DNA of 64,000 nucleotides from Actinomycetales bacterium (GTDB lineage Bacteria; Actinomycetota; Actinomycetes; Actinomycetales; CAWJMD01), in the NCBI GenBank assembly GCA_047974565.1, contig JBKECN010000057.1, positions 49,560 through 113,559 of the forward strand, in the 5' to 3' direction. This document shows, in pieces, positions 1,738-18,319 of this stretch. The position numbers and the translations under genes are program-made. The notes below the pieces were generated by a model. That model worked only from the letters and a program-made list of their open reading frames with translations. It was not told the origin of the DNA and did not search any database. Positions within the stretch are counted from its first letter, which is position 1. Each line of letters starts with the position of its first letter.

Positions 1738-2472
1738 ATGGGACGCTTCCAGCAGGCGGTGCAACTGGCCGGGATCGACCGGTCCGGCCTGGAGGTCGCC
1801 GACCTCGGCTGTGGTTCCGGGCGGCTCCTGGACGCCCTGTTCGAGGGCGCTCTGGCACCCTCGCGGGTGCACGCCATCGACCACGCCTCCGGGCTGGACG
1901 ATCATCTGCTCACCGATCCACGGGTCCGCAGCGTCACCGCCGACCTGGACGAGCCGCTTGGCCTGCCGACCGCCGGCCTGGACCGGGTGTTCAGTGTCAA
2001 CGCACTGGAGCATCTCGTCGATCCGGTGGCGCATGTGCGGGAGATCCACCGCGTGTTGCGTCCGGGAGGGCTCGCGGTGATCGTGCACAGCGACTGGGAC
2101 ACCGCGCTGTTCGCCGGCGCCGACGACACCCTGACCCGTCGGCTGGTGGACAACTTCGTCGCCGCGATGCCGACCTGGGTGCGTCGTGCCGACGGCTTCA
2201 TGGGGCGCCGGCTGCTCCGGCTGCCACGCCTCGCCGCCGCCCAGGGCGCGCCGTTCGCGCAGGTCGAGGTGAGCACGTGGGCCGATACCCACCGACGCTT
2301 CGACGACGACTCCCTCGCTCACAAGGTGGCGATGGGGATGGCGATGGCCGGTGCCGCCGAGCCCGGACTCTGCGGATCCGTGGCGGGTTGGCTGGACGCC
2401 CTCGAGCAGGCCTGCGAGGCCGGGGAGTTCCTGTTCAGCGTCACCGACGTGGCCCTGGTGCTGCGCCGATGA
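1738..2472 (+). CDS. class I SAM-dependent methyltransferase
   Basis: Verified ATG at 1738, preceded by gagggagag. Motif I is VADLGCGSGRLL. This is the inner part of track ORF 1222..2472. Confidence 0.75.
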   Translation: MGRFQQAVQLAGIDRSGLEVADLGCGSGRLLDALFEGALAPSRVHAIDHASGLDDHLLTDPRVRSVTADLDEPLGLPTAGLDRVFSVNALEHLVDPVAHVREIHRVLRPGGLAVIVHSDWDTALFAGADDTLTRRLVDNFVAAMPTWVRRADGFMGRRLLRLPRLAAAQGAPFAQVEVSTWADTHRRFDDDSLAHKVAMGMAMAGAAEPGLCGSVAGWLDALEQACEAGEFLFSVTDVALVLRR

Positions 2473-3542
2473 GCACGTCGGGCAATGCGGAGGGCAAGGC
2501 GGTGACCAGCGTGAGTTGGCGGACGGCCTGGCAACAGGCACTGTACGGGCCGGACGGCTTCTACCGTCGTCACCTTCCGGCCAACCACTTCCGCACGTCG
2601 AGCATCGCCGCCGCCGACGTGCTGGCCGAGGCGCTGGATGCCCTCACCGAGCGCTTCGGACTGCGCCGAGTGGTGGAGGTGGGTGCCGGTGGCGGCGAGT
2701 TGCTGACCGCTCTGCGGCACAACGGCTCTGACCTGCAGCTGACCGGAGTGGAGATGCGCCCGCGCCCGGAGGGCCTCGACCCCGAGATCGGCTGGCAGGA
2801 GTCCCTGCCGACCTTGGACGACACCCCGACCCTGCTGGTCGCCATCGAGGTGCTGGACGTCATCCCGGTGACGATCGCGGAGCAGGACGCCTCCGGTGCG
2901 ATGCGCGAGGTGCTGGTGACCCCCGATGGGAGCGAGGATCTGGGGCCGGGAGTGGACGAGGCCGATGGGGCCTGGTACCGGCGCTGGCACCACCAGCGGT
3001 ATCGCCGGGCCGAGATCGGGCGGACCCGCGATGATTTCGCTGCGTTGCTGGCGCAGTCGCTGCCGCAGGGCACCCTGTTGCTGGTCGACTACGGTCACCT
3101 CGGCCCGTCACCGACGCCCACCCTGACCGGCTTTCGCGCCGGACGCGCGGTGCCCGCCGTCCCGGACGGGTCGTGCGATCTGACCGCGCACGTGCGCTGG
3201 GACTCCCTCGTCGAACGGGTGCGGACGCTGCCGGGGATGAGCGATCCGTGGTTGCAGACCCAGCGTGAGGCCTTGCGTGAACTGTGTGGGGTGCCCGGCC
3301 TCAGGCACCCCACCCAGGTGATCGGCAGGCCACCGAGCGCCGTGGACCCGCTCTCGCCGTCGACGCCCTCGACGGGGCCGGGTCCCGACCATCCCAGCCC
3401 CGCCGTCGGCGACCCGTCCGCCTACCTGACCGAACTCAACCGGCGTTCGCTGTTCGCCGAACTCACCGACCCGGACGGCCTGGGGGCCCAGCACTGGCTG
3501 ATCAGCCACGCCGGTGCCAGTGCGCACTCGCCGGGCTCGTGA
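2469..3542 (+). CDS. SAM-dependent methyltransferase, MidA/DUF185-like
   Basis: ATG at 2469 overlaps the upstream TGA (ATGA). Contains LYGPDGFYRR..HFRTSS..VVEVGAGGGELL. This is the inner part of track ORF 1713..3542. Confidence 0.6.
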   Translation: MSTSGNAEGKAVTSVSWRTAWQQALYGPDGFYRRHLPANHFRTSSIAAADVLAEALDALTERFGLRRVVEVGAGGGELLTALRHNGSDLQLTGVEMRPRPEGLDPEIGWQESLPTLDDTPTLLVAIEVLDVIPVTIAEQDASGAMREVLVTPDGSEDLGPGVDEADGAWYRRWHHQRYRRAEIGRTRDDFAALLAQSLPQGTLLLVDYGHLGPSPTPTLTGFRAGRAVPAVPDGSCDLTAHVRWDSLVERVRTLPGMSDPWLQTQREALRELCGVPGLRHPTQVIGRPPSAVDPLSPSTPSTGPGPDHPSPAVGDPSAYLTELNRRSLFAELTDPDGLGAQHWLISHAGASAHSPGS

Positions 3543-3568
3543 CCTGGCCCGTTCGCTGGTGGCGCGTC

Positions 3569-5056
3569 TCAGGCCAGCGTGAACACGAGCCAACTCAACA
3601 CGAAACCGACTGCCGCGCAGGCTGTGGTGAGCACCGTCCAGGTCTTGAGCCCATCGGCGATCGACAGGCCCAGATACTTGGTGACGATCCAGAAGCCGGA
3701 ATCGTTGATGTGCGAAAGGCCGAGCGCACCGAAACCGATGGCCAAGGTGATCGCCACCACCTGGACGGTGGAGTAATCCCCGGCCTGGATGCCCGGTGAG
3801 AGCAGGCCGCCGGTGGTCAGGATCGCCACCGTGGCCGAGCCCTGCGCCGCCCGCAGGGCCAGTGAGATGACCCAGGCGGCCACGATCAGCGGCAGTCCCA
3901 CCGCGGTCAGCGACGTCGACAGGGCGTCACCGATTCCGGATTCCACCAGCACATTGCCGAACACTCCCCCGGCGCCGGTGACGAAGATGATCACCGCGAC
4001 GGTGGGCAACGCCGAGTCGCTGACCAGACTGCGCCGCTGCGCGCTCCAGCCCGCCCGGTTGCCGATCAGCACGTAGGCCACCAGCAGGCCGACCAGCAGA
4101 GCGGTCGTCGGTGCGCCGACGAACTGGGCAAGCGGGCGCAGTGCGGAGTCCTCGCCGAGCACCGTCTGCAAGGTCGAGCCGATCATGATCATCGAGATGG
4201 GCAGGACGATGAGGAAGATGACCATCGCCGTGGACGGCACGGTTCGCCGTTCGGTGGCCGTCACCGTCCCACCGCCACCGCTCGCGCCGGTGGTGCGGAC
4301 TGGGGCGGATCCACCCGTGCCCGGCTCGTGCTCGAGACGGGCGGTCCGGGTACTCGAGCCGGCGGCCGGGTCGGTGTCGGCGGAGGTGTCGGTGAGGGTG
4401 TCGGTGGAGGCGTCGGTGGCGGGCGAGGGGAGCAGGGTGATGGCGTCGAGCCGGAAGACCCGGGCCAGCAGGTAGCCGGCCAAGGCCACCGGAATACACA
4501 GGGCGATGCCCACCAGGGTCAGCAACCCCACGTCTGTGCCGATCTGGGCCGCCGAGGCCACCGGGCCCGGGTGCGGTGGCAGCGCGACGTGCACGGTGAG
4601 CAGCGTGATCGCCACCGGCAGACCGATCTTCAACGGATTGATCCCGGTGACGTGGGCGAAGCCGAAGATGATCGGCGCCAGAATGATGAAGCCCACGTCG
4701 AAGAACACCGGGATGCCGAGGATGAAAGCGGCGCAGGTCAGCGCGGCCACCACTCGCTTCTCGCCGAGCCGCTCGGTGAAGGTCCGGGCCAGATGGTCGG
4801 CACCCCCGGAAACCTCGATCAGCCGACCGAGCATGGACCCGAGCCCGACGATGATGGCCACCGAGCCGAGCACCTTTCCCATCCCGGCGACCATCACCGG
4901 CACCACCTCCTCCAGGGGGATGGCGTCGGTGACCAGGGCGGTGCCCATGCTCACCAGAAGCAGCGCGACGAAGGCCGGGAGCTTGACCTTGATCACCAGG
5001 ACCAGCAGGACGATGACGGCACCGATCGCGATGCCCAGCAGAGCAGCGGTTCCCAT
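3569..5056 (-). CDS. GntP-family (gluconate/acid-sugar:H+) permease
   Basis: 495-aa polytopic ORF. The N-terminus MGTAALLGIAIGAVIVLLVLVIKVKLPAFVALLL and GIPVFFDVGFIILAPI are typical of GntP. The central loop carries a Thr/Asp/Gly-rich insertion. Confidence 0.85.
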   Translation of the reverse strand: MGTAALLGIAIGAVIVLLVLVIKVKLPAFVALLLVSMGTALVTDAIPLEEVVPVMVAGMGKVLGSVAIIVGLGSMLGRLIEVSGGADHLARTFTERLGEKRVVAALTCAAFILGIPVFFDVGFIILAPIIFGFAHVTGINPLKIGLPVAITLLTVHVALPPHPGPVASAAQIGTDVGLLTLVGIALCIPVALAGYLLARVFRLDAITLLPSPATDASTDTLTDTSADTDPAAGSSTRTARLEHEPGTGGSAPVRTTGASGGGGTVTATERRTVPSTAMVIFLIVLPISMIMIGSTLQTVLGEDSALRPLAQFVGAPTTALLVGLLVAYVLIGNRAGWSAQRRSLVSDSALPTVAVIIFVTGAGGVFGNVLVESGIGDALSTSLTAVGLPLIVAAWVISLALRAAQGSATVAILTTGGLLSPGIQAGDYSTVQVVAITLAIGFGALGLSHINDSGFWIVTKYLGLSIADGLKTWTVLTTACAAVGFVLSWLVFTLA

Positions 5057-10134: not shown

Positions 10135-10581
10135 ATGCAAAGGAGCGGTGAATCGTTGCTTATCGAGGGAACGGACCAGCGAATCATTGCAATCCTGACC
10201 GATGATGCTCGGCGCAGCTTCCACGACATCGGCCGACAGGTGGGATTGAGCGCTCCCGCAGTCAAGCGTCGAGTCGACCGGCTGCGGCAGCGGGGGGTGA
10301 TCAAAGGCTGGACGACGGTGGTGGACTCCGCCGCGATGGGCTGGGCGATCGAGGCCTTCGTGGAGGTGTTCTGCGAGGGGCGAGTGGCACCGTCGCGGAT
10401 CCGGGCCATGGTGGCGGACCTGCCGGAGGTGCTCGAGGCGTTCACCGTGACCGGCGACGCCGACGCCCTGCTGCACGTTCGCGCGGTGGACATGGGCGAC
10501 TTCGAGCGGGTGCTGGAACTGGTGCGCGATCACGACGGGATCGCCAAGACCCGCTCCACCATGGTGCTCACCCGGCTGTGA
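10135..10581 (+). CDS. Lrp/AsnC-family transcriptional regulator
   Basis: Contains DQRIIAILTDDARRSFHDIGRQVGLSAPAVKRRVDRLRQRGVI plus a RAM-like C-terminus. Divergent from the DDAH-like gene. An in-frame TTG at 10156, 10 nt after aaggag, is an alternative start. Confidence 0.85.
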   Translation: MQRSGESLLIEGTDQRIIAILTDDARRSFHDIGRQVGLSAPAVKRRVDRLRQRGVIKGWTTVVDSAAMGWAIEAFVEVFCEGRVAPSRIRAMVADLPEVLEAFTVTGDADALLHVRAVDMGDFERVLELVRDHDGIAKTRSTMVLTRL

Positions 10582-10677: not shown

Positions 10678-12489
10678 TCAGGCGGGGTCGTCCACGTCGA
10701 CCCCGTGGAGCCGCGCCAAGCCCGCCAGGCCCATCTCGTGGCCTTGCCCGACGACCCTGAGCCGCCACCGACCACCGCGGCGGTAGATGGTCGCCAGGTG
10801 CAGGCTCTGCTCGGTCGTGGCGGCGTCCAGAGTGGCTCGGGCGAAGATCGCTCCGGCAGCGTCGCTGACAGAAAGTTCGACAGCACCCACATCGGCAAAG
10901 GTGTGTCCGTCCGGCAGACAGGCCCAGACCAGGAGCCGGTCGTCGGTGTCATCCAGGCAATCCATCTCGATGGACAACATCGCCTCTGCCTGAGTGCTGG
11001 AATCGAGGAAGAGCGCCCCGTCGTCGGTGCCGGGCTGGTTGTAGAAGACGAAATCCTCGTCCACCCGGACCTTCTCATCCGAACCGCATCGGAAGGCAAC
11101 CACGTCCACGTCGCGCTGCGCGGTCTGCTGGCTCTGCAGCCAGGAGGTCACCAACTGCCAGGAGGCCACCTCCTCCGGCAGATCGACCACCTGCCCGCGA
11201 ACCAGTGTCGTGTGGTCGGCCACAGCCGAGCCGAGGACAGCCGCCACGGCGCCGGCCGGAGCGGCGAGCGATTCCAGCGTGGTCGGGTCCAGCCAGGTGA
11301 GCCCGGCTTCGAGTACCCGCGGCCAGCGCGCATCGCGATCCGCTCCGTGCAGGGCCACGACGTCGGTAACGGTCTGGGTGAGCATGACGCGTGGAGCGCC
11401 GCCGCGCTCGCCTATCCGCTCACGCACCTGGGCCGCCTCACCGTGCAGACCACCGAGAACGAGCACGCGACGGCCGGCCATCGGGCCCGTGCGCCGCGCG
11501 ACCGGCTTGGCGGCGACGGCCGGTCCAGTGCTGCTCTGCTCCTGCCTCGTCCCGGGCAGAATCGATCCGAGCAGAGCCAGAAACTCCTCCTCATCGACCA
11601 CGGGTGTGCCGTGCTTGTCAGCTGCCCGCAACTTCCCGCTACCTGAGTCGGGGTCATTGGACACGAGCAGACTCGTCCTGCCCGAAACGCTGTTCATCGC
11701 GGACAGACCGGCGGCATAGCCTCGATCGAGGATGGTGTGGCGTGGCAACTCGGTCTCACCTGTGACCACGAAAGCCATGCCCTGAACCAGATTCGTGCCT
11801 GACCGCCAACGGCCTGGGTTGGCATACGGCGAAACTTGGGAGCGACGAGTATGCCGCGGCCGCCCCGCCAGAGCGCAGGTCGCCAACGGAAGCGTGATCG
11901 CGAAGGTGTACGAATCGCTCAGCAGATGCCGCAGCACCTCCACCAGGGCGTCGGCATCCCCTTCGGCGTCGTGGTACCGCCACTGGGCAACCCCGAAGAA
12001 GCCGGCCACAGTAGCCAACCCGTAATCCTCGAGCGGAAGGTCCAGACGGCGGGCCAGGTCCCGGGTGCACAGCCGGTTGTTGACCGGGACCCGTTGACCC
12101 AGCCGGTCGAACTCCGCCTCCAGCATCTCGAAGTCGAAGCGTGCGTTGTGAGCCACGAGAACCCGGTCGCTGAGCAGTTCACCGATCTGCTGGGCAACAT
12201 CGACGAACGTCGGTGCGCCCACCAGCCGATCCGGGGTAATGCCGTGGATCTCGACGGGCCCCGGATGACACTGCGGGTCCACCAGGGTGGACCACCGGTC
12301 GGTGACGGTGCCATCGGCCGTCATCCGCCTGATCGCTACTTGGACCACCCGATCGCGACCTGGCACCAGGCCGGTGGTCTCACAGTCGACGACCGCATAG
12401 TCCAGCGGAAACGCCGTCGCGACCGGCACACCAAGTGGGCCCCCATGCGTGAAAAGCACAACCATCCCCCCTCGACCCGAGCCTGCCAC
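10678..12489 (-). CDS. DEDDh 3'-5' exonuclease (DnaQ-like) fused to two BRCT-like domains and a C-terminal TerD domain
   Basis: Exonuclease motifs are VVDCETTG, HNARFDFEML and HDAEGDA. The BRCT-like segments are GMAFVVTGE..LLVSND and GRRVLVLGG. TerD-like segments are DVDVVAFRC..DEDFVFYNQPGTDDGALFL and ATIYRRGGRWRLRVVGQG. Start is GTG 12489 or ATG 12465. Confidence 0.8.
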   Translation of the reverse strand: MAGSGRGGMVVLFTHGGPLGVPVATAFPLDYAVVDCETTGLVPGRDRVVQVAIRRMTADGTVTDRWSTLVDPQCHPGPVEIHGITPDRLVGAPTFVDVAQQIGELLSDRVLVAHNARFDFEMLEAEFDRLGQRVPVNNRLCTRDLARRLDLPLEDYGLATVAGFFGVAQWRYHDAEGDADALVEVLRHLLSDSYTFAITLPLATCALAGRPRHTRRSQVSPYANPGRWRSGTNLVQGMAFVVTGETELPRHTILDRGYAAGLSAMNSVSGRTSLLVSNDPDSGSGKLRAADKHGTPVVDEEEFLALLGSILPGTRQEQSSTGPAVAAKPVARRTGPMAGRRVLVLGGLHGEAAQVRERIGERGGAPRVMLTQTVTDVVALHGADRDARWPRVLEAGLTWLDPTTLESLAAPAGAVAAVLGSAVADHTTLVRGQVVDLPEEVASWQLVTSWLQSQQTAQRDVDVVAFRCGSDEKVRVDEDFVFYNQPGTDDGALFLDSSTQAEAMLSIEMDCLDDTDDRLLVWACLPDGHTFADVGAVELSVSDAAGAIFARATLDAATTEQSLHLATIYRRGGRWRLRVVGQGHEMGLAGLARLHGVDVDDPA

Positions 12490-12695
12490 CCCCCTGCGGG
12501 AAGCGACCCAGCACAGCGCAGCCTACGGGCCGGATGGCCGCCCATAGGGGAGAACCAGAACTTTCGTGACTTACGGCTAGCGCGCTCCGCGCGCCGACCC
12601 AGGCCAGTGAACACTTCTAAGTCCCACAGACCCAAAAGTGTTCAGTGGAGCCGGAGAGGGAGTGACACCCCGGGCCGATCACCTCGCAGCCAGGC

Positions 12696-14510
12696 TCAGC
12701 CGCGTTTGATCAGGTCCACCGGGCGAGGGGCCTGGGCACGCATCCACTGCTCCGGGCCTGTGGCGGACCGGGCCAGGCGGGCGCGGTTCGCCTGGTCCAT
12801 CAGCAGCCGGCCGGCGATCTCCTGGTCCAGGTGCGCAGCGACCGGGCGCACCGGGCCGGGGGTGGAGTGCACCACCATGCTCGCCAGCTTGAGCCTGCGC
12901 TGCACCGGCCCCTGGGTCAGGCCCAGGCTCTGGGTACGCGCGTGTGGCACGATCGCCAACCGCCGGGTGAGCCGTCCCGAGCGCAATAGCAATGCGGTGG
13001 TGGTGACCGCGAAGCCGTTGCGCCGCCAACTGATCGGGTCCAACCACACCGAGCGTGGTGGCGCCCCGACGAAGGACGGCCCAGCGTCGGAGGCGACCGG
13101 CCAGGCCGGCCCGTCCCAGCCGATGCCCTGGTCGAGCAGGGCGACCGGGTGCCGCGTGCCCAGATCGGGTAGCACTTGGGCCAGCAGCAGATAGGCCTCG
13201 TCCCGGGTCGCGGCCGGCATCAGCACCGTCGACTCGTTTCCGGGGCCACCACCGCCGACGCCGTAGCCGGCGACATTGACCCGAACCAGCCACCAGCCCC
13301 TTGCCCGCCAGAGCAGCGGCTGCCTCAGTTGCACGGCCTGCACCCGGCCGGGCGGGACGGTCTGGGTGCGGGTCTCGAGCAGTCCGTGACGCAGCCGCAG
13401 ACCGTCCGGGGACACCGCCACGGTGAAGTTGAAACCACGCGAGAAGCGCGCCCACACCGTGGACGCCGAGGCCAGCACGATCGGGATCGCGGTGAAGATC
13501 GCCCCGGGAGCGAAGACCACGGCCACCGCGACACCGACGAGCATCAGCACCGCGATGATCGTGTCCGAGTTCAGGAGCAGCGAGCCGATCAATCGGCCCG
13601 GGCTCAGAGCCATCAGTTGCCGCTCGGGCGCCGCCGGCGCCTCAGACCCGGTGTAGTCCACCCCGGCGGCCTGGGCCAGCAGCACATTGCGCAGCCTCTC
13701 GGCGTCGACGTCCTTGAGGTACTGCAGCCGGATGTCCGAGCCCGCGCCCCCGGCGACCTCGAGGCGCAACTCGCTGAGCCCGAAGATCCGGCCCAGCAGA
13801 GGCTGGACGACGTCCACCGCCTGCAGCCGATCGAGCCGGGCATGTCGTTGCTGGCGGAACAGGATGCCGACCTCGTGCTCGAGCGAGCCGTTGCGCACCC
13901 GGTACCTGGTCTTGCGCCAGGACAAGGTGGCCCAGCCGCCGATCGCCGTGAGGACGATGAGGACCCCGATCGCGAGGACGATGATGTTGTTGAAAGTGCC
14001 CAGGCTTGGGAAGATCTCGACCCAGACCTGACCCGAGCGCATCGCCTCGGCCATGGCGCGCAACTGGGAGTAGTTCTGTTGGGTGAAGATGGCCAGCGCG
14101 GCGACGATGATCTTCCAGGAGCGCAGGAAGGGCGTGACCCGGTGCAGCCGGTGCCAGCCCTCGGCGTCGGTGACGCCGGGCAGGTTGCTGGTATCGGGAT
14201 CTGCGGGTGGCTCGGGGTTCTGGCCGGCTGGCTCGCCGAGCGCGGGGTGCCTGACGAGCGCGGTGGATGACGAACGATCAGGCCCCTGGGATCCGTGCTC
14301 GGTTGCTGGGTTCGGAGTAGGTGGCGCCCATCCGGGCTGACTCGACGGGCCGGGTGATGACAGCAGGCCGGGAGATTGCGGTGGGCCGGGATCAGGCCGG
14401 TGGGCCGCTGGAGGAGGTGCCTGCTCGGGAGAGGTTTGGCGAGCAGGCTGGTGCGCGGGCGGCGACCCGCCCGGGTTGCCGGCGGGATCTGGCATCGAAT
14501 CGGGTGTCAC
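12696..14510 (-). CDS. YdbT-like membrane protein with tandem bacterial PH (bPH_2) domains and a Pro-rich N-terminus
   Basis: C-terminal about 600 aa of track ORF 12696..15419, whose remainder overlaps the upstream gene. TM pairs alternate with PH-like segments (YRVRNGSLEHEVGILFRQ.., LRLRHGLLETRTQTV.., LLLRSGRLTRRLAIV..). Start is GTG 14510 or ATG 14495; both codons were verified. Confidence 0.7.
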   Translation of the reverse strand: MTPDSMPDPAGNPGGSPPAHQPARQTSPEQAPPPAAHRPDPGPPQSPGLLSSPGPSSQPGWAPPTPNPATEHGSQGPDRSSSTALVRHPALGEPAGQNPEPPADPDTSNLPGVTDAEGWHRLHRVTPFLRSWKIIVAALAIFTQQNYSQLRAMAEAMRSGQVWVEIFPSLGTFNNIIVLAIGVLIVLTAIGGWATLSWRKTRYRVRNGSLEHEVGILFRQQRHARLDRLQAVDVVQPLLGRIFGLSELRLEVAGGAGSDIRLQYLKDVDAERLRNVLLAQAAGVDYTGSEAPAAPERQLMALSPGRLIGSLLLNSDTIIAVLMLVGVAVAVVFAPGAIFTAIPIVLASASTVWARFSRGFNFTVAVSPDGLRLRHGLLETRTQTVPPGRVQAVQLRQPLLWRARGWWLVRVNVAGYGVGGGGPGNESTVLMPAATRDEAYLLLAQVLPDLGTRHPVALLDQGIGWDGPAWPVASDAGPSFVGAPPRSVWLDPISWRRNGFAVTTTALLLRSGRLTRRLAIVPHARTQSLGLTQGPVQRRLKLASMVVHSTPGPVRPVAAHLDQEIAGRLLMDQANRARLARSATGPEQWMRAQAPRPVDLIKRG

Positions 14511-14521
14511 GGGGCCGACGC

Positions 14522-15031
14522 TCACAGCCCGGCCAGCTGGGACTCCCCGCGGGAGGCGAGCCGGTCGCGGAGTCGGGCGGCCTCGGCCTGCGGTAGCCCG
14601 GGAATGTATGCATCCGACCCGGCCGATGCGGTGTGCAACTGCACCTGCGCCAACCCGATGGCCCGGTCCAGCGGCCCGGCCTTGACGTCCACATACTGCA
14701 TTCGGCCGTAGGGAACCACCACCATGGAACGGAACAGCAGGCCGTGCTTGATGAGCAGGTCGTCGTCGCGCTCGGCGTAGCCCCAGGCGCGCACGCGGCG
14801 CGCGATCAGCGCCAGATTGACCAGGCCGAGGACGAGCCAGGCGGCGGCCCCGGCCCAGACCCATCCCCACTCCCCCAGCCAGGCCACCACACACCAGATA
14901 GTCGTGGTGATCGCCAGGGCGATGCCACTGCCGGTCATCCGCACGATTGCCAGGCGTGGGGAGACTGCGCTCCAGACCACCCCGTCGGGTTGGAACGGGT
15001 CGCTCGACCCTGCCGATGCGTGCGTACTCAC
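14522..15031 (-). CDS. YdbS-like PH-domain (bPH_2) membrane protein
   Basis: Two TM helices followed by [49 protein letters not shown]. Sits directly upstream of the YdbT-like gene. Confidence 0.75.
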
Positions 15032-15234
15032 CCTTCGATAGTGCCATTGATCCAGGCGAGCGATGGCCCAGGTCGGCCAGTCGCCGCCGGAGCCACCGAG
15101 CGGGCGGACGCTGCCTGCGGGGAGCCCGGCACGTGAAAGCCCCTCCGGGAGCCTGCCCAGCAGCGGACGCTGTGACTCGGCCTGACCCGGCCACGATCCG
15201 GGATCGGCCAGAGGGACGTGGCAGACTCGTCCGG

Positions 15235-16413
15235 GTGAGCGACGACACCCTCATGGTCGGTCTCGGGGCCGGGGCGCTGGCGTCCGACCGGGACCTGCCC
15301 ACCACCGAGATGGTGCTCAACATCGGTCCCCAGCACCCGGCCACGCACGGGGTTTTGAGGTTGCGGCTGCGCCTGGACGGCGAACGCATCGTCGCCGCAG
15401 AGCCGGTGGTTGGGTACATGCACCGGGGCGCGGAGAAGCTCTTCGAGGCCCGCGACTACCGGCAGATCATCGTGCTGGCCAATCGACACGACTGGCTGTC
15501 TGCCTTCTCCAACGAACTCGGCGTGGTGCTCGGAGCAGAGCACCTGCTGGCGATGGAGGTGCCCGAACGGGCCACCTGGGCGCGCACCTTGCTCGCCGAG
15601 CTCAACCGGGTGCTCTCGCACCTGATGTTCCTGGGCTCGTACCCCCTCGAACTCGGCGGGATCACCCCGATCTTCTACGCCTTCACCGGCCGCGAGCAGT
15701 TGCAGGCGGTGATGGAGGAGATCTCCGGTGGACGGATGCACTTCATGTTCAACCGAGTCGGCGGCCTCAAGGACGACCTGCCACTGGGCTGGCTGGACCG
15801 GGTGGATGCCGCGGTGGCCCAGGTCCGTATCCAGCTCGACCGCCTCGACGAGTTGGTGATGGGCAACGAGATCGTCCATGCCCGCACCCGCGGGGTCGGC
15901 GTCCTGAGCCCGGAACAGGTCTCGGCCTTCGGTGTGTCCGGGCCGATCGCGCGGGCCAGCGGGGTCGATTTCGACCTGCGCCGCGACGAGCCCTACCTGG
16001 CGTACGGGGAGTTGTTCGGTCCGGACGGCCCCGGACGGGTGGCGATCCGCACCGAGGGCGACTGCCTGGCCCGGCTGCAGGTGCTGGCCGAACAGGCCAG
16101 GGTGAGCCTGGACCTAGCCCTGGCCTGCACGGCGCGATTGCGTGCGCTGCCGCCCGGACCGGTGAACGTGCGACTTCCCAAGGTGCTCAAACTCCCTGAG
16201 GGACACCGCTACACGTGGACCGAGAATCCGCTGGGGATCAACGGCTATTACCTGGTCTCGCGTGGGGAGAAGACGCCGTGGCGGCTCAAACTCCGTTCGG
16301 CCAGCTTCAACAACGTGCAGGTGCTCTCCGAACTGTTACCGGGGACCTTGGTGGCGGACATGGTCGCCATCCTGGGCTCGATGTTCTTCGTCGTCGGGGA
16401 CGTGGACAAGTAG
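15235..16413 (+). CDS. nuoD: NADH-quinone oxidoreductase subunit D-like protein (orphan; no other nuo genes in the window)
   Basis: Contains [37 protein letters not shown] and a C-terminal [17 protein letters not shown]. Start is GTG 15235 (verified) or ATG 15253. The track ORF 14947..16413 is over-extended. Confidence 0.8.
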
Positions 16414-16445: not shown

Positions 16446-17654
16446 CTACAGCGAGGCCGTCGGCCAGGTGGTGCGATGGTCGGCATGCAGCAGGATGAGA
16501 TCCGGGTCGTCGACGGTGGGATAGATCCACTCCGAATTGATCGACGACTTGAGCTTCTTGGCCTCGTCCCCGGTCTGGGAGACCGTCCGGTCCCAGCCGA
16601 GGGTGAGCACAGCGCCCGCCTCGCCCAGATCCAGGCACGTGACATACGGGTCCGGCGCGAACGGCACCAACGGGTGACCCAGCAGGTCGGAGGCGACGTT
16701 GACGCCGACGAACTTTCCCTGCGGCACCGCGTGCTGGCAACTCTGGGTCACTGTGTGGCCGGGCTCGGCCACAGCAGCGGCAGTGTCGCCGGCAGCGTAG
16801 ACGCCTGGCACTTGGGGCACCCGGAGGAACTCGTCCACGACCAAGCGACCGAGCCGATCCCGCTCGGCCGGGATCTGCTCGGTCAGGTGATTCGCCCGCA
16901 TCCCCGCCGTCCAGATGACGGTGGCCGCGTCGACTTCGGTGCCATCGCTGAAGATCGTGCGCGTGGGCTCGACCCGGTCGATGGTGGTGTTCAGCACCAC
17001 CTCGACACCGGTCTCTGCGAGCGCCTTGAGAATCTCCGGCCGCGGCCCGTCGCCCAGCTCCGGGCCGACCTCCGCGGCCAGGTCGACGAGCAGCACCCGC
17101 ACCGGATGCCCCGCCGAGAGTTCTGCGAGCCTGCCGGTCAACTCGGTCGCCACCTCGATGCCGGTGAAGCCTGCGCCGACCACGACGGCCGTCCAGGCAC
17201 CCGGCTTGTCCGGGTCGTCGGCCAATCGCTGCAGGTGGGAATGCAGGGCAGCCGCGGCGGGCAGGGTATCGACATCGAAGAGATGTTCCGCGCCCGGCAG
17301 CGTCGGCCGGATCAGCCTGCTTCCGGTTGCCAGGGCGAGCCGGTCGTAGTGCAGCGTGCGGGCCGCACCGTCCCGTTCCACCACGTCCACGGTGCCGGCG
17401 GCGGTGTCGATGCCCAGCGCCGTCGCGGCCACCCGGCGGACTCCGATCGGCCCCAGCACCCGGTCCAGGCTGACGCGCATGCGTGCCGGGTCCGATTCGT
17501 ACAGCCGTGGTCGGATCACCATGTCGTCTGCGGGGGCGACCAGGGTGACCCGAAAGGCATCGTCGGGCGCGCCGAGGATCTTTCGGGTTCGCACCGCACC
17601 GGCCGCCGCCCAGACGCCGGCGAATCCGCCGCCAAGGACCAGGACTTCTTTCAT
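16446..17654 (-). CDS. ndh: type II NADH dehydrogenase (NDH-2) / FAD-dependent pyridine nucleotide-disulfide oxidoreductase
   Basis: Contains MKEVLVLGGGFAGVWAA, VVVGAGFTGIEVA and VYAAGDTA. An RBS (gagggag) lies upstream of the verified ATG at 17654. Confidence 0.85.
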   Translation of the reverse strand: MKEVLVLGGGFAGVWAAAGAVRTRKILGAPDDAFRVTLVAPADDMVIRPRLYESDPARMRVSLDRVLGPIGVRRVAATALGIDTAAGTVDVVERDGAARTLHYDRLALATGSRLIRPTLPGAEHLFDVDTLPAAAALHSHLQRLADDPDKPGAWTAVVVGAGFTGIEVATELTGRLAELSAGHPVRVLLVDLAAEVGPELGDGPRPEILKALAETGVEVVLNTTIDRVEPTRTIFSDGTEVDAATVIWTAGMRANHLTEQIPAERDRLGRLVVDEFLRVPQVPGVYAAGDTAAAVAEPGHTVTQSCQHAVPQGKFVGVNVASDLLGHPLVPFAPDPYVTCLDLGEAGAVLTLGWDRTVSQTGDEAKKLKSSINSEWIYPTVDDPDLILLHADHRTTWPTASL

Positions 17655-17720
17655 GATGCTCCCTCGGATCGTTGACCAGCCGCGGCCCGCGGTTGCGGAC
17701 CGGAACTCGTGGAGGTGGGC

Positions 17721-18233
17721 TCACCTGGACCTGGACCTGGACGCGGACCCGGGATCGCGGTCGAACAGTCGACGGGCCACACCTGCCGCCTCCGGGGCGT
17801 GCTCATCGACGGTGCCGCGGATATCGGCGATGCTGTGCCGGGCCAGCACCTCGCGCCAGGCGGCGTCCGCCGACTGCATGACAGCGTTGATCGCACACGG
17901 CCCTTCGAAACACCGCGCAGGCAGGCTTTCGCCCATGCCGCGTCGCCGGATCTCGGAACACCTGAACGCGCCTTGAGATCCATCAATGGCCTCCGCGACG
18001 TCCAAGAGCGAGATCTGCTCGGGTGGGCGCGCCAAGGTGAAGCCACCGCGAGGGCCGGGCTGGGAGGTGAGTAGACCGGCCCGGCTCAGCGCCTGCAGGT
18101 GCTTGTTGAGATACGCGGCAGGCAGATCATGACTGGCGGCCAACTTGGCTGCGGGGACGGGCTCCTGATCGCCGAGCCAGGCGAGAGTCAGCAGGATGTG
18201 CAGGCCCCACTCGACGCCCTCGCTCAACTTCAT
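17721..18233 (-). CDS. Rrf2-family transcriptional regulator (three-Cys, possibly Fe-S/redox sensing)
   Basis: Contains MKLSEGVEWGLHILLTLAW..LPAAYLNKHLQALSRAGLLTS. The Cys residues occur in FRCSE..ARCFEGPCAI. ATG verified at 18233. Confidence 0.85.
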   Translation of the reverse strand: MKLSEGVEWGLHILLTLAWLGDQEPVPAAKLAASHDLPAAYLNKHLQALSRAGLLTSQPGPRGGFTLARPPEQISLLDVAEAIDGSQGAFRCSEIRRRGMGESLPARCFEGPCAINAVMQSADAAWREVLARHSIADIRGTVDEHAPEAAGVARRLFDRDPGSASRSRSR

Positions 18234-18238
18234 TGGGT

Positions 18239-18258
18239 TATCCTGGCTAATCAGGATA
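18239..18258. promoter_or_regulatory. candidate Rrf2 operator: inverted repeat TATCCTG-N6-CAGGATA
   Basis: Read directly. AT-rich palindrome 6 nt upstream of the Rrf2 start codon, overlapping its RBS region. Confidence 0.35.
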
Positions 18259-18319
18259 GTTACTGTCAAGGATTAGATGGCTGGTTCCCAGGGTGCGGTT
18301 GGTGGGGTCCTCGGCGCCT

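Follow-up and report, generated by a model that had tools for sequence, protein, structure and literature searches.

A DnaQ-like DEDDh exonuclease with two BRCT domains and a C-terminal TerD domain, a member of a common actinobacterial subfamily

The gene studied here lies on the minus strand of the window, i.e. the whole 64,000-nucleotide stretch of Actinomycetales DNA that was analysed. Its coding sequence (10678..12489) encodes a protein of 603 aa when read from a GTG at 12489, and an alternative ATG start at 12465 gives a product of 595 aa, which is the length annotated by NCBI. A 100 % identical protein (P0001, 595 aa) is recorded there from an Actinomycetales MAG. The GC content at the three codon positions of the ORF (0.74/0.50/0.79) is coding-like for a window of 70 % GC. 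A fusion artefact or frameshift was ruled out by this identical NCBI protein and by the presence of the same architecture across hundreds of genomes.

The gene stands alone, as the first-pass annotation had stated, between an Lrp regulator gene (Lrp/AsnC, 10135-10581, plus strand) and a minus-strand pair encoding PH-domain (bPH_2) proteins of the YdbT type (from 12696) and of the YdbS type (14522-15031). The rest of the window has a housekeeping content (FtsH, FolE, PanD, Def), and no defence or mobile genes were found close to the exonuclease gene within it. The upstream intergenic region (206 bp, 12490..12695, minus strand) contains a 20-nt imperfect inverted repeat with arms at 12604-12623 and 12629-12648. 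This repeat was rejected as a conserved operator, as it is not conserved upstream of the two closest homologues, and a search of the gene's surroundings for promoters and terminators called neither a sigma-70-like promoter nor an intrinsic terminator.

Four domains were delineated in the product. The first is a DEDDh (DnaQ/RNase T-type) 3'-5' exonuclease domain (aa 31-195; 11905..12399, minus strand), matched by Pfam RNase_T over aa 33-186 (E 1.3e-23, 84.8 bits vs a cut-off of 24) and placed by Foldseek next to DinG-exo, PolC-exo and Pol III epsilon at E values of 1e-9 to 1e-12. The three exonuclease motifs previously described as intact are indeed legible in the translation, i.e. DCETTG (D35, E37), HNARFDFEML (D119) and HDAEGDA (H173, D178), and all five catalytic residues are invariant across 76 homologues. 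On this conservation, the product would be expected to be an active Mg-dependent 3'-5' DNA exonuclease.

The exonuclease is followed by a BRCT domain of the LigA/RFC1 class (BRCT1, aa 233-306; 11572..11793, minus strand), which scores 24.5 bits with Pfam BRCT (cut-off 21.3) and aligns end to end with the BRCTs of LigA (1l7b, 1e-6; 1dgs) and RFC1 (2ebu/2k6g). Its phosphate-pocket residues T243-G244, R250 and K286 match, at aligned positions, the T-G, R and K common to the BRCTs of LigA and RFC1 p140; G244, R250 and K286 are invariant in the family and T243 is found in at least 90 % of the sequences. The equivalent RFC1 BRCT residues, studied by Kobayashi et al. in 2006/2010, reportedly bind the 5'-phosphate of DNA ends. 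Unlike its LigA and RFC1 counterparts, BRCT1 of the window protein lies C-terminal to an exonuclease and precedes a second BRCT whose pocket is degenerate.

These two BRCTs are separated by a Pro/Ala-rich linker (linker 1, aa ~307-334; 11488..11571, minus strand), whose length differs by tens of residues between homologues and in which pLDDT falls below 50 at aa 319-330. The second BRCT domain (BRCT2, aa ~335-410; 11260..11487, minus strand) has a divergent BRCT fold, and this segment of the window protein has no Pfam BRCT match. The claim of two BRCT-like segments nevertheless held, since four comparisons identified BRCT2. The profile of BRCT1 aligned colinearly with that of the mid-region over 76 columns (hhalign probability 72.5 %, E 3e-5), the top PDB matches of the mid-region profile were the BRCTs of LigA, Rad4/TopBP1 and PARP1, and 4 of 33 family members matched PF12738 (twin BRCT). 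Modelled on its own with AF2, the segment reached a pLDDT of 89.5, and all 50 of its 50 best Foldseek matches were BRCTs (TM up to 0.72, rmsd 1.8 A). A mere linker was thus ruled out for this segment by profile-profile comparison and fold search. In the hhalign alignment, the pocket of BRCT2 is degenerate, Thr and Arg being replaced by L345 and A352, and G346 and a basic residue, R388, are retained. The pTM of the full model (0.78) hints at a compact four-domain arrangement.

The C-terminal domain (aa 428-593; 10711..11208, minus strand) is a TerD beta-sandwich, in agreement with the initial assignment. Pfam TerD (PF02342) covers it over profile positions 4-185 of 187 (E 7.4e-24, 84.7 bits vs a cut-off of 25.3), and the same two PDB entries, 2kxt and 3ibz, were retrieved by sequence (E 4e-13 and 9e-10, respectively) and by Foldseek (TM 0.73-0.77). 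Profile searches could have failed to support TerD or the BRCTs; they were run, and all four domain assignments stand.

The TerD proteins encoded in ter operons (Klebsiella pneumoniae, 2KXT/2KXV) and the TerD-like protein of Streptomyces coelicolor (3IBZ) share the fold and sequence family of this domain, which keeps their D-x-D and D-x-DF-x-FY motifs and the C-terminal GQGY-type strand. Whereas ter-operon TerD is a stand-alone protein of ~190 aa, here TerD is a domain within a nuclease and has no ter genes nearby. Indeed, terZABCDE/F, telA and the associated biosynthetic genes were absent from the window and from eight homologous loci inspected gene by gene. In one Nocardia homologous locus, a TerD protein of 433 aa is encoded at a distance of 5 kb, but it is unrelated.

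The first-pass annotation had described TerD domains as Ca-binding modules; the one studied here does not resemble a standard Ca-binding TerD. K. pneumoniae TerD binds Ca2+, as stated in a passage of PMC8779313 that cites Pan 2011, through two sites formed by residues 40, 41, 42, 78, 79, 89 and 29, 82, 84, 88 (PMC8779313). Most of these ligands come from the loop GDNxTGEGxGDDE (ligand list in PMC8779313), the counterpart of which is 4-6 residues shorter in the window TerD and largely stripped of acidic residues. The counterparts of residues 40-42 are kept in the family as D/E460-V-D462 (D/E460 in 66 of 76 sequences, D462 in 76 of 76), as is a D477-x-D479 motif in which D479 occurs in all 76. 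From D78, N79, G82, G84, D88 and E89, only D88 has a well-conserved counterpart (E502, 74/76); positions 79, 82, 84 and 89 are lost or deleted in the family and 78 is variable. The TerD fold and the counterparts of 40-42 and D88 are therefore present, but the main Ca loop is shortened and non-standard.

The architecture is not unusual. The Exo-BRCT core was found in at least 598 species-level genomes, and all four domains are encoded in 73 of the 78 uncut loci among the best 80 loci of the family. The four-domain fusion is thus a common and large actinobacterial subfamily that is already annotated publicly, NCBI naming its members ‘TerD family protein’ or ‘DEDDh family exonuclease’. The window gene is one more, rather divergent member of it and adds nothing further. 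Among the best 80 genomes there is one locus per species, and sequences group by genus in a neighbor-joining tree built without support values; the distribution is wide and largely lineage-tracking. Our literature search found no paper on TerD, exonuclease and BRCT together, nor on TerD domain, Streptomyces and DNA polymerase III.

Several variants were encountered. Short forms are nested among the long ones in Kineococcus gypseus (328 aa), Yimella (315 aa), Actinomadura (304-315 aa), Parafrankia (331 aa) and Actinocorallia (locus L073); for the last, a separate BRCT2-TerD after the stop codon was sought in every frame and is absent. The tail is frameshifted in three Streptomyces assemblies, and BRCT2-TerD is present but in another frame at L026, L045 and L059. 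A family form without BRCT2 also exists. Within the tail, G432, D436, W450, D462, D479, D555, E560, R571, R576, R578 and Q582 are invariant across lineages that are 43-61 % identical overall.

Neighbourhoods are not conserved, even inside Streptomyces. We found no conserved operon partner in the Streptomyces, Dactylosporangium and Nocardia loci or in the two closest relatives, and all-against-all clustering of the ORFs flanking the 80 loci gave no conserved partner either, the largest cluster holding 12 of 80. A tRNA suspected from an alignment beside one homologue (L088) was not found by ARAGORN.

To situate the N-terminal half, the protein was compared with NF004719, the profile of the short Exo-BRCT DnaQ. 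The window protein aligns over aa 21-321 with profile positions 9-320 of 331 at 325.8 bits, below the curated equivalog cut-off (389 bits). Other long forms straddle this cut-off (373-397 bits). The range for short forms is 483-544 bits, and one of metagenomic origin, with GGQFALF at its end, reaches 543.8 bits across the whole profile. By these profile scores, the N-terminal half is placed as the sister of the short Exo-BRCT DnaQ. The earlier label of a proofreading-type nuclease is accordingly kept for the DEDDh exonuclease, but not in its generic sense, as this half groups with a non-canonical DnaQ. Orthology with the mycobacterial DnaQ gene is suggested by the unsupported neighbor-joining tree and the HMM scores, NF004719 being linked to Rv3711c by matching architecture, length and published description; no mycobacterial DnaQ turned up among the named clusters consulted.

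Mycobacterial DnaQ (M. tuberculosis Rv3711c / M. smegmatis Ms6275), whose architecture is the one modelled by NF004719 / PRK06063 ‘DEDDh family exonuclease’, likewise consists of a DEDDh exonuclease then a BRCT, and both it and the long form are actinobacterial, from hosts whose replicase proofreads via the DnaE1 PHP domain (PMC11348249). After its BRCT, the mycobacterial protein ends with a C-terminal Q[Y/L]ALF clamp motif, whereas the window protein continues with a variable linker, BRCT2 and TerD, i.e. ~280 extra residues, and has no such motif. A search for a hidden Q..L.F-type beta-clamp-binding motif in all 76 long forms (the window protein and 75 others) found none, whereas two short forms, P0166 and P0196, have QFALF and QATLF at their C-termini. 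Genetics and biochemistry have been published for the mycobacterial Exo-BRCT-CBM DnaQ. It is an antimutator that requires both exonuclease and BRCT, the clamp-binding motif being dispensable for this function, and complements the DnaE1 PHP domain as a second proofreader in replication; tolerance to genotoxic agents does not involve it (PMC11348249).

In Streptomyces lividans, DnaQ3 (SLIV_28580) has been described as ‘exonuclease + extended C-terminal BRCT’, with no mention of TerD (PMC8373060). Within the best 80, every uncut Streptomyces locus codes for the form fused to TerD (three with frameshifts), and DnaQ3 is therefore probably a member of the TerD-bearing subfamily. The one candidate genetic datum on such a member thus comes from insertional inactivation of dnaQ3, which gave no mutator phenotype and only a non-significant SOS trend; dnaQ paralogues of this species affect mitomycin-C-induced mutagenesis, dnaQ3 showing a similar, non-significant trend (PMC8373060).

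Taken together, the reading we favour, at roughly even odds (about 0.5), is that the protein would be a replication or repair 3'-5' exonuclease of the non-canonical DnaQ lineage, with a BRCT2-TerD tail serving in targeting or regulation. The nuclease, of the actinobacterial Exo + BRCT type, would trim DNA 3'-5', and BRCT1, with its intact LigA/RFC1-type phosphate pocket, would bring it to the replisome or to nicks, gaps and primer-template junctions that carry a 5'-phosphate. On its flexible linker, BRCT2-TerD would stand in for the peptide with which the short form binds the beta-clamp at its C-terminus, as an alternative targeting or regulatory device, i.e. a protein-protein adaptor possibly gated by metal or another ligand, and would not itself be a DNA-processing domain. 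The exonuclease activity, the replication or repair role of the protein and this role of BRCT2-TerD are what we infer. Counting against the reading are the NF004719 score below cut-off; the absence of a mutator phenotype in the S. lividans dnaQ3 mutant (PMC8373060), if DnaQ3 is a TerD-bearing form; and a neighbourhood unconserved even within Streptomyces, which is unusual for a core replication factor.

The direct DNA-processing role previously attributed to TerD was drawn from the domain fusion. A comparative-genomics study, Anantharaman et al. 2012, is said to lie behind the proposal of such a role. A targeting or regulatory role would fit the data at least as well as direct DNA processing. 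The more particular proposal that BRCT2-TerD is a ligand- or metal-gated switch, replacing the clamp tether and timing the access of the exonuclease to replication or repair intermediates, seems to us unlikely.

Closest to the view of the first-pass annotation is the alternative of TerD as a sensor of Ca2+, some other metal or a small ligand under chemical stress (tellurite, oxidants, DNA damage) that activates or relocates an end-processing exonuclease, the tandem BRCTs binding phosphorylated partners or DNA ends. We regard this as doubtful, but as the strongest competitor of a replication or repair exonuclease with a targeting tail. The conserved TerD fold and acidic positions (D462, D479, E502, D/E460), the Ca2+ binding attributed to K. 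pneumoniae TerD in the passage cited above, the phosphate pocket of BRCT1 and the mitomycin-C data on S. lividans dnaQ paralogues would all be consistent with it. The shortened Ca loop, in which E502 is the only well-conserved counterpart, argues against it, as do the surroundings of the gene in the loci examined, which hold neither ter nor telA nor any other stress gene, the mycobacterial DnaQ having no part in genotoxic-agent tolerance (PMC11348249) and an upstream inverted repeat that is not conserved.

An old link exists between ter genes and phage resistance, and a single-gene anti-phage or anti-plasmid nuclease, degrading invading DNA with TerD as sensor, was also considered; we find it improbable. 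Two PADLOC HMMs of the phage defence candidate PDC-S48 match the Exo and BRCT parts (PDLC05027, 243 bits; PDLC05028, 180 bits), neighbourhoods are highly variable, genes for HTH_3, DUF6036 and PIN/VapC-like proteins lie downstream in the closest relative, and several Streptomyces copies sit far from the middle of the chromosome. However, PDC systems, PDC-S48 included, are untested candidates (PMC11514479), and our literature search found no experimental validation of PDC-S48. Its models (411 and 512 aa) match only the Exo-BRCT part, which is common to the housekeeping-type mycobacterial DnaQ, and have no match on TerD. The family spans at least 598 species-level genomes, has a single locus in each of the best 80 and groups by genus, which is unlike patchy defence genes, and the window gene lies in a housekeeping context outside any defence island. 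Least probable of all, a BRCT2-TerD tail that is a dispensable, possibly decaying appendage of a protein working like the short Exo-BRCT DnaQ would agree with the nested short forms, the three frameshifted Streptomyces tails and the degenerate Ca loop, but the tail is retained in 73 of 78 uncut loci, has many invariant residues and is modelled at high confidence, which argues for purifying selection on it.

Bacteria, and actinomycetes in particular, have TerD domains in abundance, and to our knowledge how these domains work has been unclear for decades. Here, TerD is covalently tied to a type of enzyme with a simple assayable activity, whose short relative has a defined mycobacterial phenotype, and nature supplies controls, since some short forms have a clamp-binding peptide, others carry nothing, and one form is without BRCT2; this subfamily is therefore convenient for asking what TerD does. 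The question also matters for how faithfully DNA is replicated, and how mutable it is, in antibiotic-producing Streptomyces and in Nocardia. If BRCT2-TerD did prove to be a gated switch, this would be the first defined molecular output for a TerD domain, and TerD domains would be regulatory adaptors for DNA enzymes, beyond Ca-binding stress proteins.

The gene at 10678-12489 on the minus strand has an unbroken reading frame of 603 codons starting at a GTG, and its codon-position GC (0.74/0.50/0.79) fits a window of about 70% GC, so it was accepted as a real gene. An identical NCBI protein (P0001, 100% identity, from an 'Actinomycetales bacterium' MAG) is annotated as 595 aa long, from a minus-strand ATG at 12465 that is preceded by a G-rich Shine-Dalgarno-like run. 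Pfam domains above their gathering cut-offs were RNase_T (aa 33-186, E 1.3e-23), BRCT (BRCT1, aa 233-306, 24.5 bits against a cut-off of 21.3) and TerD (aa 428-593, E 7.4e-24). The exonuclease motifs named in the first-pass annotation were found in the translation, and none of the DEDDh catalytic residues D35, E37, D119, H173 and D178 varies across 76 aligned homologues. A full-length structure model (pLDDT 88.3, pTM 0.78) is poorly defined only in the linkers aa 319-330 and aa 415-423. Using Foldseek, its exonuclease part was found to resemble solved epsilon, PolC and DinG exonucleases, and its TerD part the TerD structures 3IBZ and 2KXT; this TerD domain is complete in both sequence and fold.

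No Pfam domain was matched between BRCT1 and TerD. Four lines of evidence identify this segment as a second BRCT domain (BRCT2): (i) its profile is colinear with that of BRCT1 (hhalign probability 72.5%, E 3e-5); (ii) against PDB sequences, its top matches are LigA, Rad4/TopBP1 and PARP1 BRCTs, with weak (0.013-0.17) but mutually consistent E-values; (iii) 4 of 33 family members reach the twin-BRCT family PF12738; (iv) the segment modelled alone with AF2 (pLDDT 89.5) retrieved BRCT domains as 50 of its 50 best Foldseek matches, with TM up to 0.72 and an rmsd of 1.8 A. Pfam, profile and fold comparison thus agree on the order Exo-BRCT1-linker-BRCT2-TerD originally proposed. BRCT1 aligns over its full length with the BRCT of NAD-dependent ligase (1l7b, E 1e-6) and that of RFC1 (2ebu/2k6g), its T243-G244, R250 and K286 falling at matching positions; G244, R250 and K286 are invariant among the 76 homologues and T243 nearly so. 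In work by Kobayashi et al. (2006/2010), the RFC1 BRCT is said to grip the 5'-phosphate of a recessed DNA end through residues matching this T-G, R and K. When aligned to BRCT1 by hhalign, BRCT2 shows Leu in place of the Thr and Ala in place of the Arg, and retains the Gly and a basic R388; it resembles a BRCT with a structural or protein-binding task more than one that reads phosphate. A 516-aa metagenomic homologue (P0123) has Exo-BRCT1 and TerD with BRCT2 undetectable, which suggests that TerD and nuclease can be linked without a strict need for BRCT2.

The calcium ligands of Klebsiella pneumoniae TerD, as listed in the part of PMC8779313 that cites Pan et al. 2011, are residues 40, 41, 42, 78, 79 and 89 (site 1) and 29, 82, 84 and 88 (site 2). 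They were mapped through a phmmer alignment to 2KXT and the columns counted across the 76 homologues. Residues 40-42 correspond to D/E460-V461-D462 (D462 in 76/76, D/E460 in 66/76) and D88 to E502 (74/76); D78 falls at a variable position (D/E at 498 in 55/76), and N79, G82, G84 and E89 have no counterpart, being lost or deleted. The GDNRTGEGDGDDE loop as a whole is reduced to D-S-S-T-Q-A-(gap)-E-A in the window protein, i.e. 4-6 residues shorter. With the ligand loop shortened and stripped of most acidic residues, classical calcium binding by the TerD of this family is doubtful, though a smaller acidic site may remain.

The exonuclease gene runs convergently with an Lrp/AsnC gene and lies 206 bp downstream of a same-strand YdbS/YdbT-type bPH_2 pair, both neighbours having been correctly named at first pass. 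The wider region is of housekeeping character (peptide deformylase, GntR/FCD, GntP permease, PanD, FolE, FtsH), and a promoter and terminator scan around the gene called none. As the gene has other neighbours in Streptomyces albidoflavus, Dactylosporangium, Nocardia and the two nearest relatives, and the largest cluster of flanking ORFs covers 12 of the best 80 of at least 598 loci, it stands on its own, unconnected to a ter operon. The first-pass annotation is confirmed in its architecture and supported in part in its interpretation. A stress-gated repair nuclease, a reading close to that interpretation, is weakened by the degenerate calcium loop and the missing ter or stress-gene context, and we consider it unlikely. 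Still less probable is a defence nuclease, for which speak the PADLOC PDC-S48 models (a phage-defence candidate) matching the Exo-BRCT part and the variable neighbourhoods; against it, the distribution is broad and tracks genus, the window context is housekeeping and PDC systems are candidates only.

Several features of these neighbourhoods were recorded separately. An imperfect inverted repeat of 20 nt (CCAGTGAACACTTCTAAGTC / GACCCAAAAGTGTTCAGTGG, 12604-12648; arms 80% complementary, 5-nt spacer) sits in the gap separating the exonuclease gene from the YdbT-like gene; it may serve as an operator or form a terminator hairpin devoid of a T-run, and was not conserved upstream of the two nearest homologues. 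The YdbT-like ORF (12696-15419, minus strand, 907 aa) is far longer than the protein it encloses, whose three bPH_2 repeats begin near aa 500, and overlaps the YdbS-like ORF 14522-15031 in a different frame; its true start must be internal. Adjoining the pair, the plus-strand ORF 14947-16413 carries a Complex1_49kDa (NuoD-like) domain and stands alone, with no further nuo genes adjacent; a Pyr_redox_2 oxidoreductase (16446-17720) and an Rrf2 regulator (17721-18272) lie on the opposite strand. On the contig of the nearest homologue, P0002 (locus L087), HTH_3, DUF6036 and PIN/VapC-like genes follow immediately 3' (2420-4681), a toxin-antitoxin-like setting very unlike that of the window. In Nocardia asteroides (L005), a gene for a separate 433-aa TerD protein (1482-2783) lies some 5 kb upstream of the one for Exo-BRCT-BRCT-TerD; seen at this locus only, it may be a coincidence.

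The architecture proved to be very widespread. A protein search returned 852 relatives, of which the best 120 are 565-680 aa long, combine RNase_T (with or without BRCT) and TerD, and come from Streptomyces, Nocardia, Dactylosporangium, Kineococcus, Geodermatophilus, Cellulomonas, Actinomadura, Sanguibacter and others, under the names 'TerD family protein', 'DEDDh family exonuclease' or 'DNA polymerase III subunit epsilon'. The nearest relatives, both metagenomic, share 61% and 59% identity and the others 43-52%, which makes the window protein a divergent member. With an Exo-BRCT1 profile and one genome per species, at least 600 stretches were found and at least 598 confirmed. Contig ends cut two of the best 80 of these loci, and 73 of the 78 uncut ones encode BRCT2 and TerD in frame; the other five comprise three frameshifted Streptomyces loci, one weak score and one Actinocorallia gene genuinely ending after BRCT1. 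In the three Streptomyces assemblies (L026, L045, L059), the BRCT2-TerD part runs on in another frame, which reflects either an error in the assemblies or a tail at the start of pseudogenisation.

The NCBIfam profile NF004719 (PRK06063, 'DEDDh family exonuclease', 331 positions) matches aa 21-321 of the window protein with 325.8 bits, below its cut-off of 389; other long forms (Exo-BRCT1-BRCT2-TerD) score 373-397 bits, a 339-aa metagenomic short form (Exo-BRCT only) ending GGQFALF 543.8 bits (profile positions 6-331) and a 331-aa Parafrankia short form 482.8 bits. Sequence similarity thus points to the N-terminal half of the window protein being an actinobacterial 'non-canonical DnaQ'. The short forms P0166 (GGQFALF) and P0196 (GQATLF), both metagenomic, end in a clamp-binding motif like the mycobacterial Q[Y/L]ALF; such a motif was found in 0 of 76 long forms, all of which end in HGVDVxD. 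The family C-terminus is therefore a clamp peptide, BRCT2-TerD or, in some short forms, neither. L073 (Actinocorallia sp. B10E7), P0129, P0124, P0132 and P0136 are natural short forms ending directly after BRCT1, without clamp motif, in genera or families where relatives have the long form; downstream of L073, neither BRCT2 nor TerD was found in any frame. In a rough neighbor-joining tree built on Exo-BRCT1 and lacking support values, short forms of Kineococcus gypseus, Yimella (beside Calidifontibacter), Actinomadura and Parafrankia nest with long forms from their own genus or family, suggesting secondary tail loss, and separate basal short groups comprise the clamp-motif forms, Halopolyspora, a Propionibacteriaceae MAG and Kineococcus halophytocola. 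That the tail is dispensable, as natural truncations might imply, is the least probable reading given the strong conservation of BRCT2-TerD.

Mycobacterial DnaQ has the architecture of the short form, i.e. an exonuclease, an 86-residue BRCT and a C-terminal clamp-binding motif (PMC11348249). When it is deleted, mutations arise at a higher rate and replication forks are perturbed; exonuclease and BRCT are both needed, and the clamp motif is required for DnaN binding in vitro and dispensable in vivo. In models the BRCT sits on the DnaE1 PHP domain, and the protein has no role in tolerance to genotoxic agents (PMC11348249). Our preferred reading, with a probability of about one half, is that the window protein is an active 3'-5' DNA exonuclease of this non-canonical DnaQ lineage. 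It would act on replication or repair intermediates, with BRCT1, on the analogy of mycobacteria and the LigA/RFC1 class, as a putative essential targeting domain; BRCT2-TerD, on a variable linker, may be a module for targeting by another route or for regulation, in the place of the short form's clamp tether.

In S. lividans, three dnaQ paralogues were inactivated, and the dnaQ3 insertional mutant had no mutator phenotype and a non-significant trend in mitomycin-C-induced mutagenesis (PMC8373060). As every uncut Streptomyces locus in the best 80 of at least 598 encodes the TerD-fused form (three frameshifted), DnaQ3 probably belongs to this subfamily. If so, the absence of a simple mutator phenotype mirrors early results on mycobacterial DnaQ, whose effect was clear only with more sensitive assays and proofreading-compromised backgrounds (PMC11348249). 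The architecture itself is known, database-annotated and unsurprising to a specialist, and the window gene is a new, rather divergent member; the subfamily offers a tractable route to asking what a TerD domain does.
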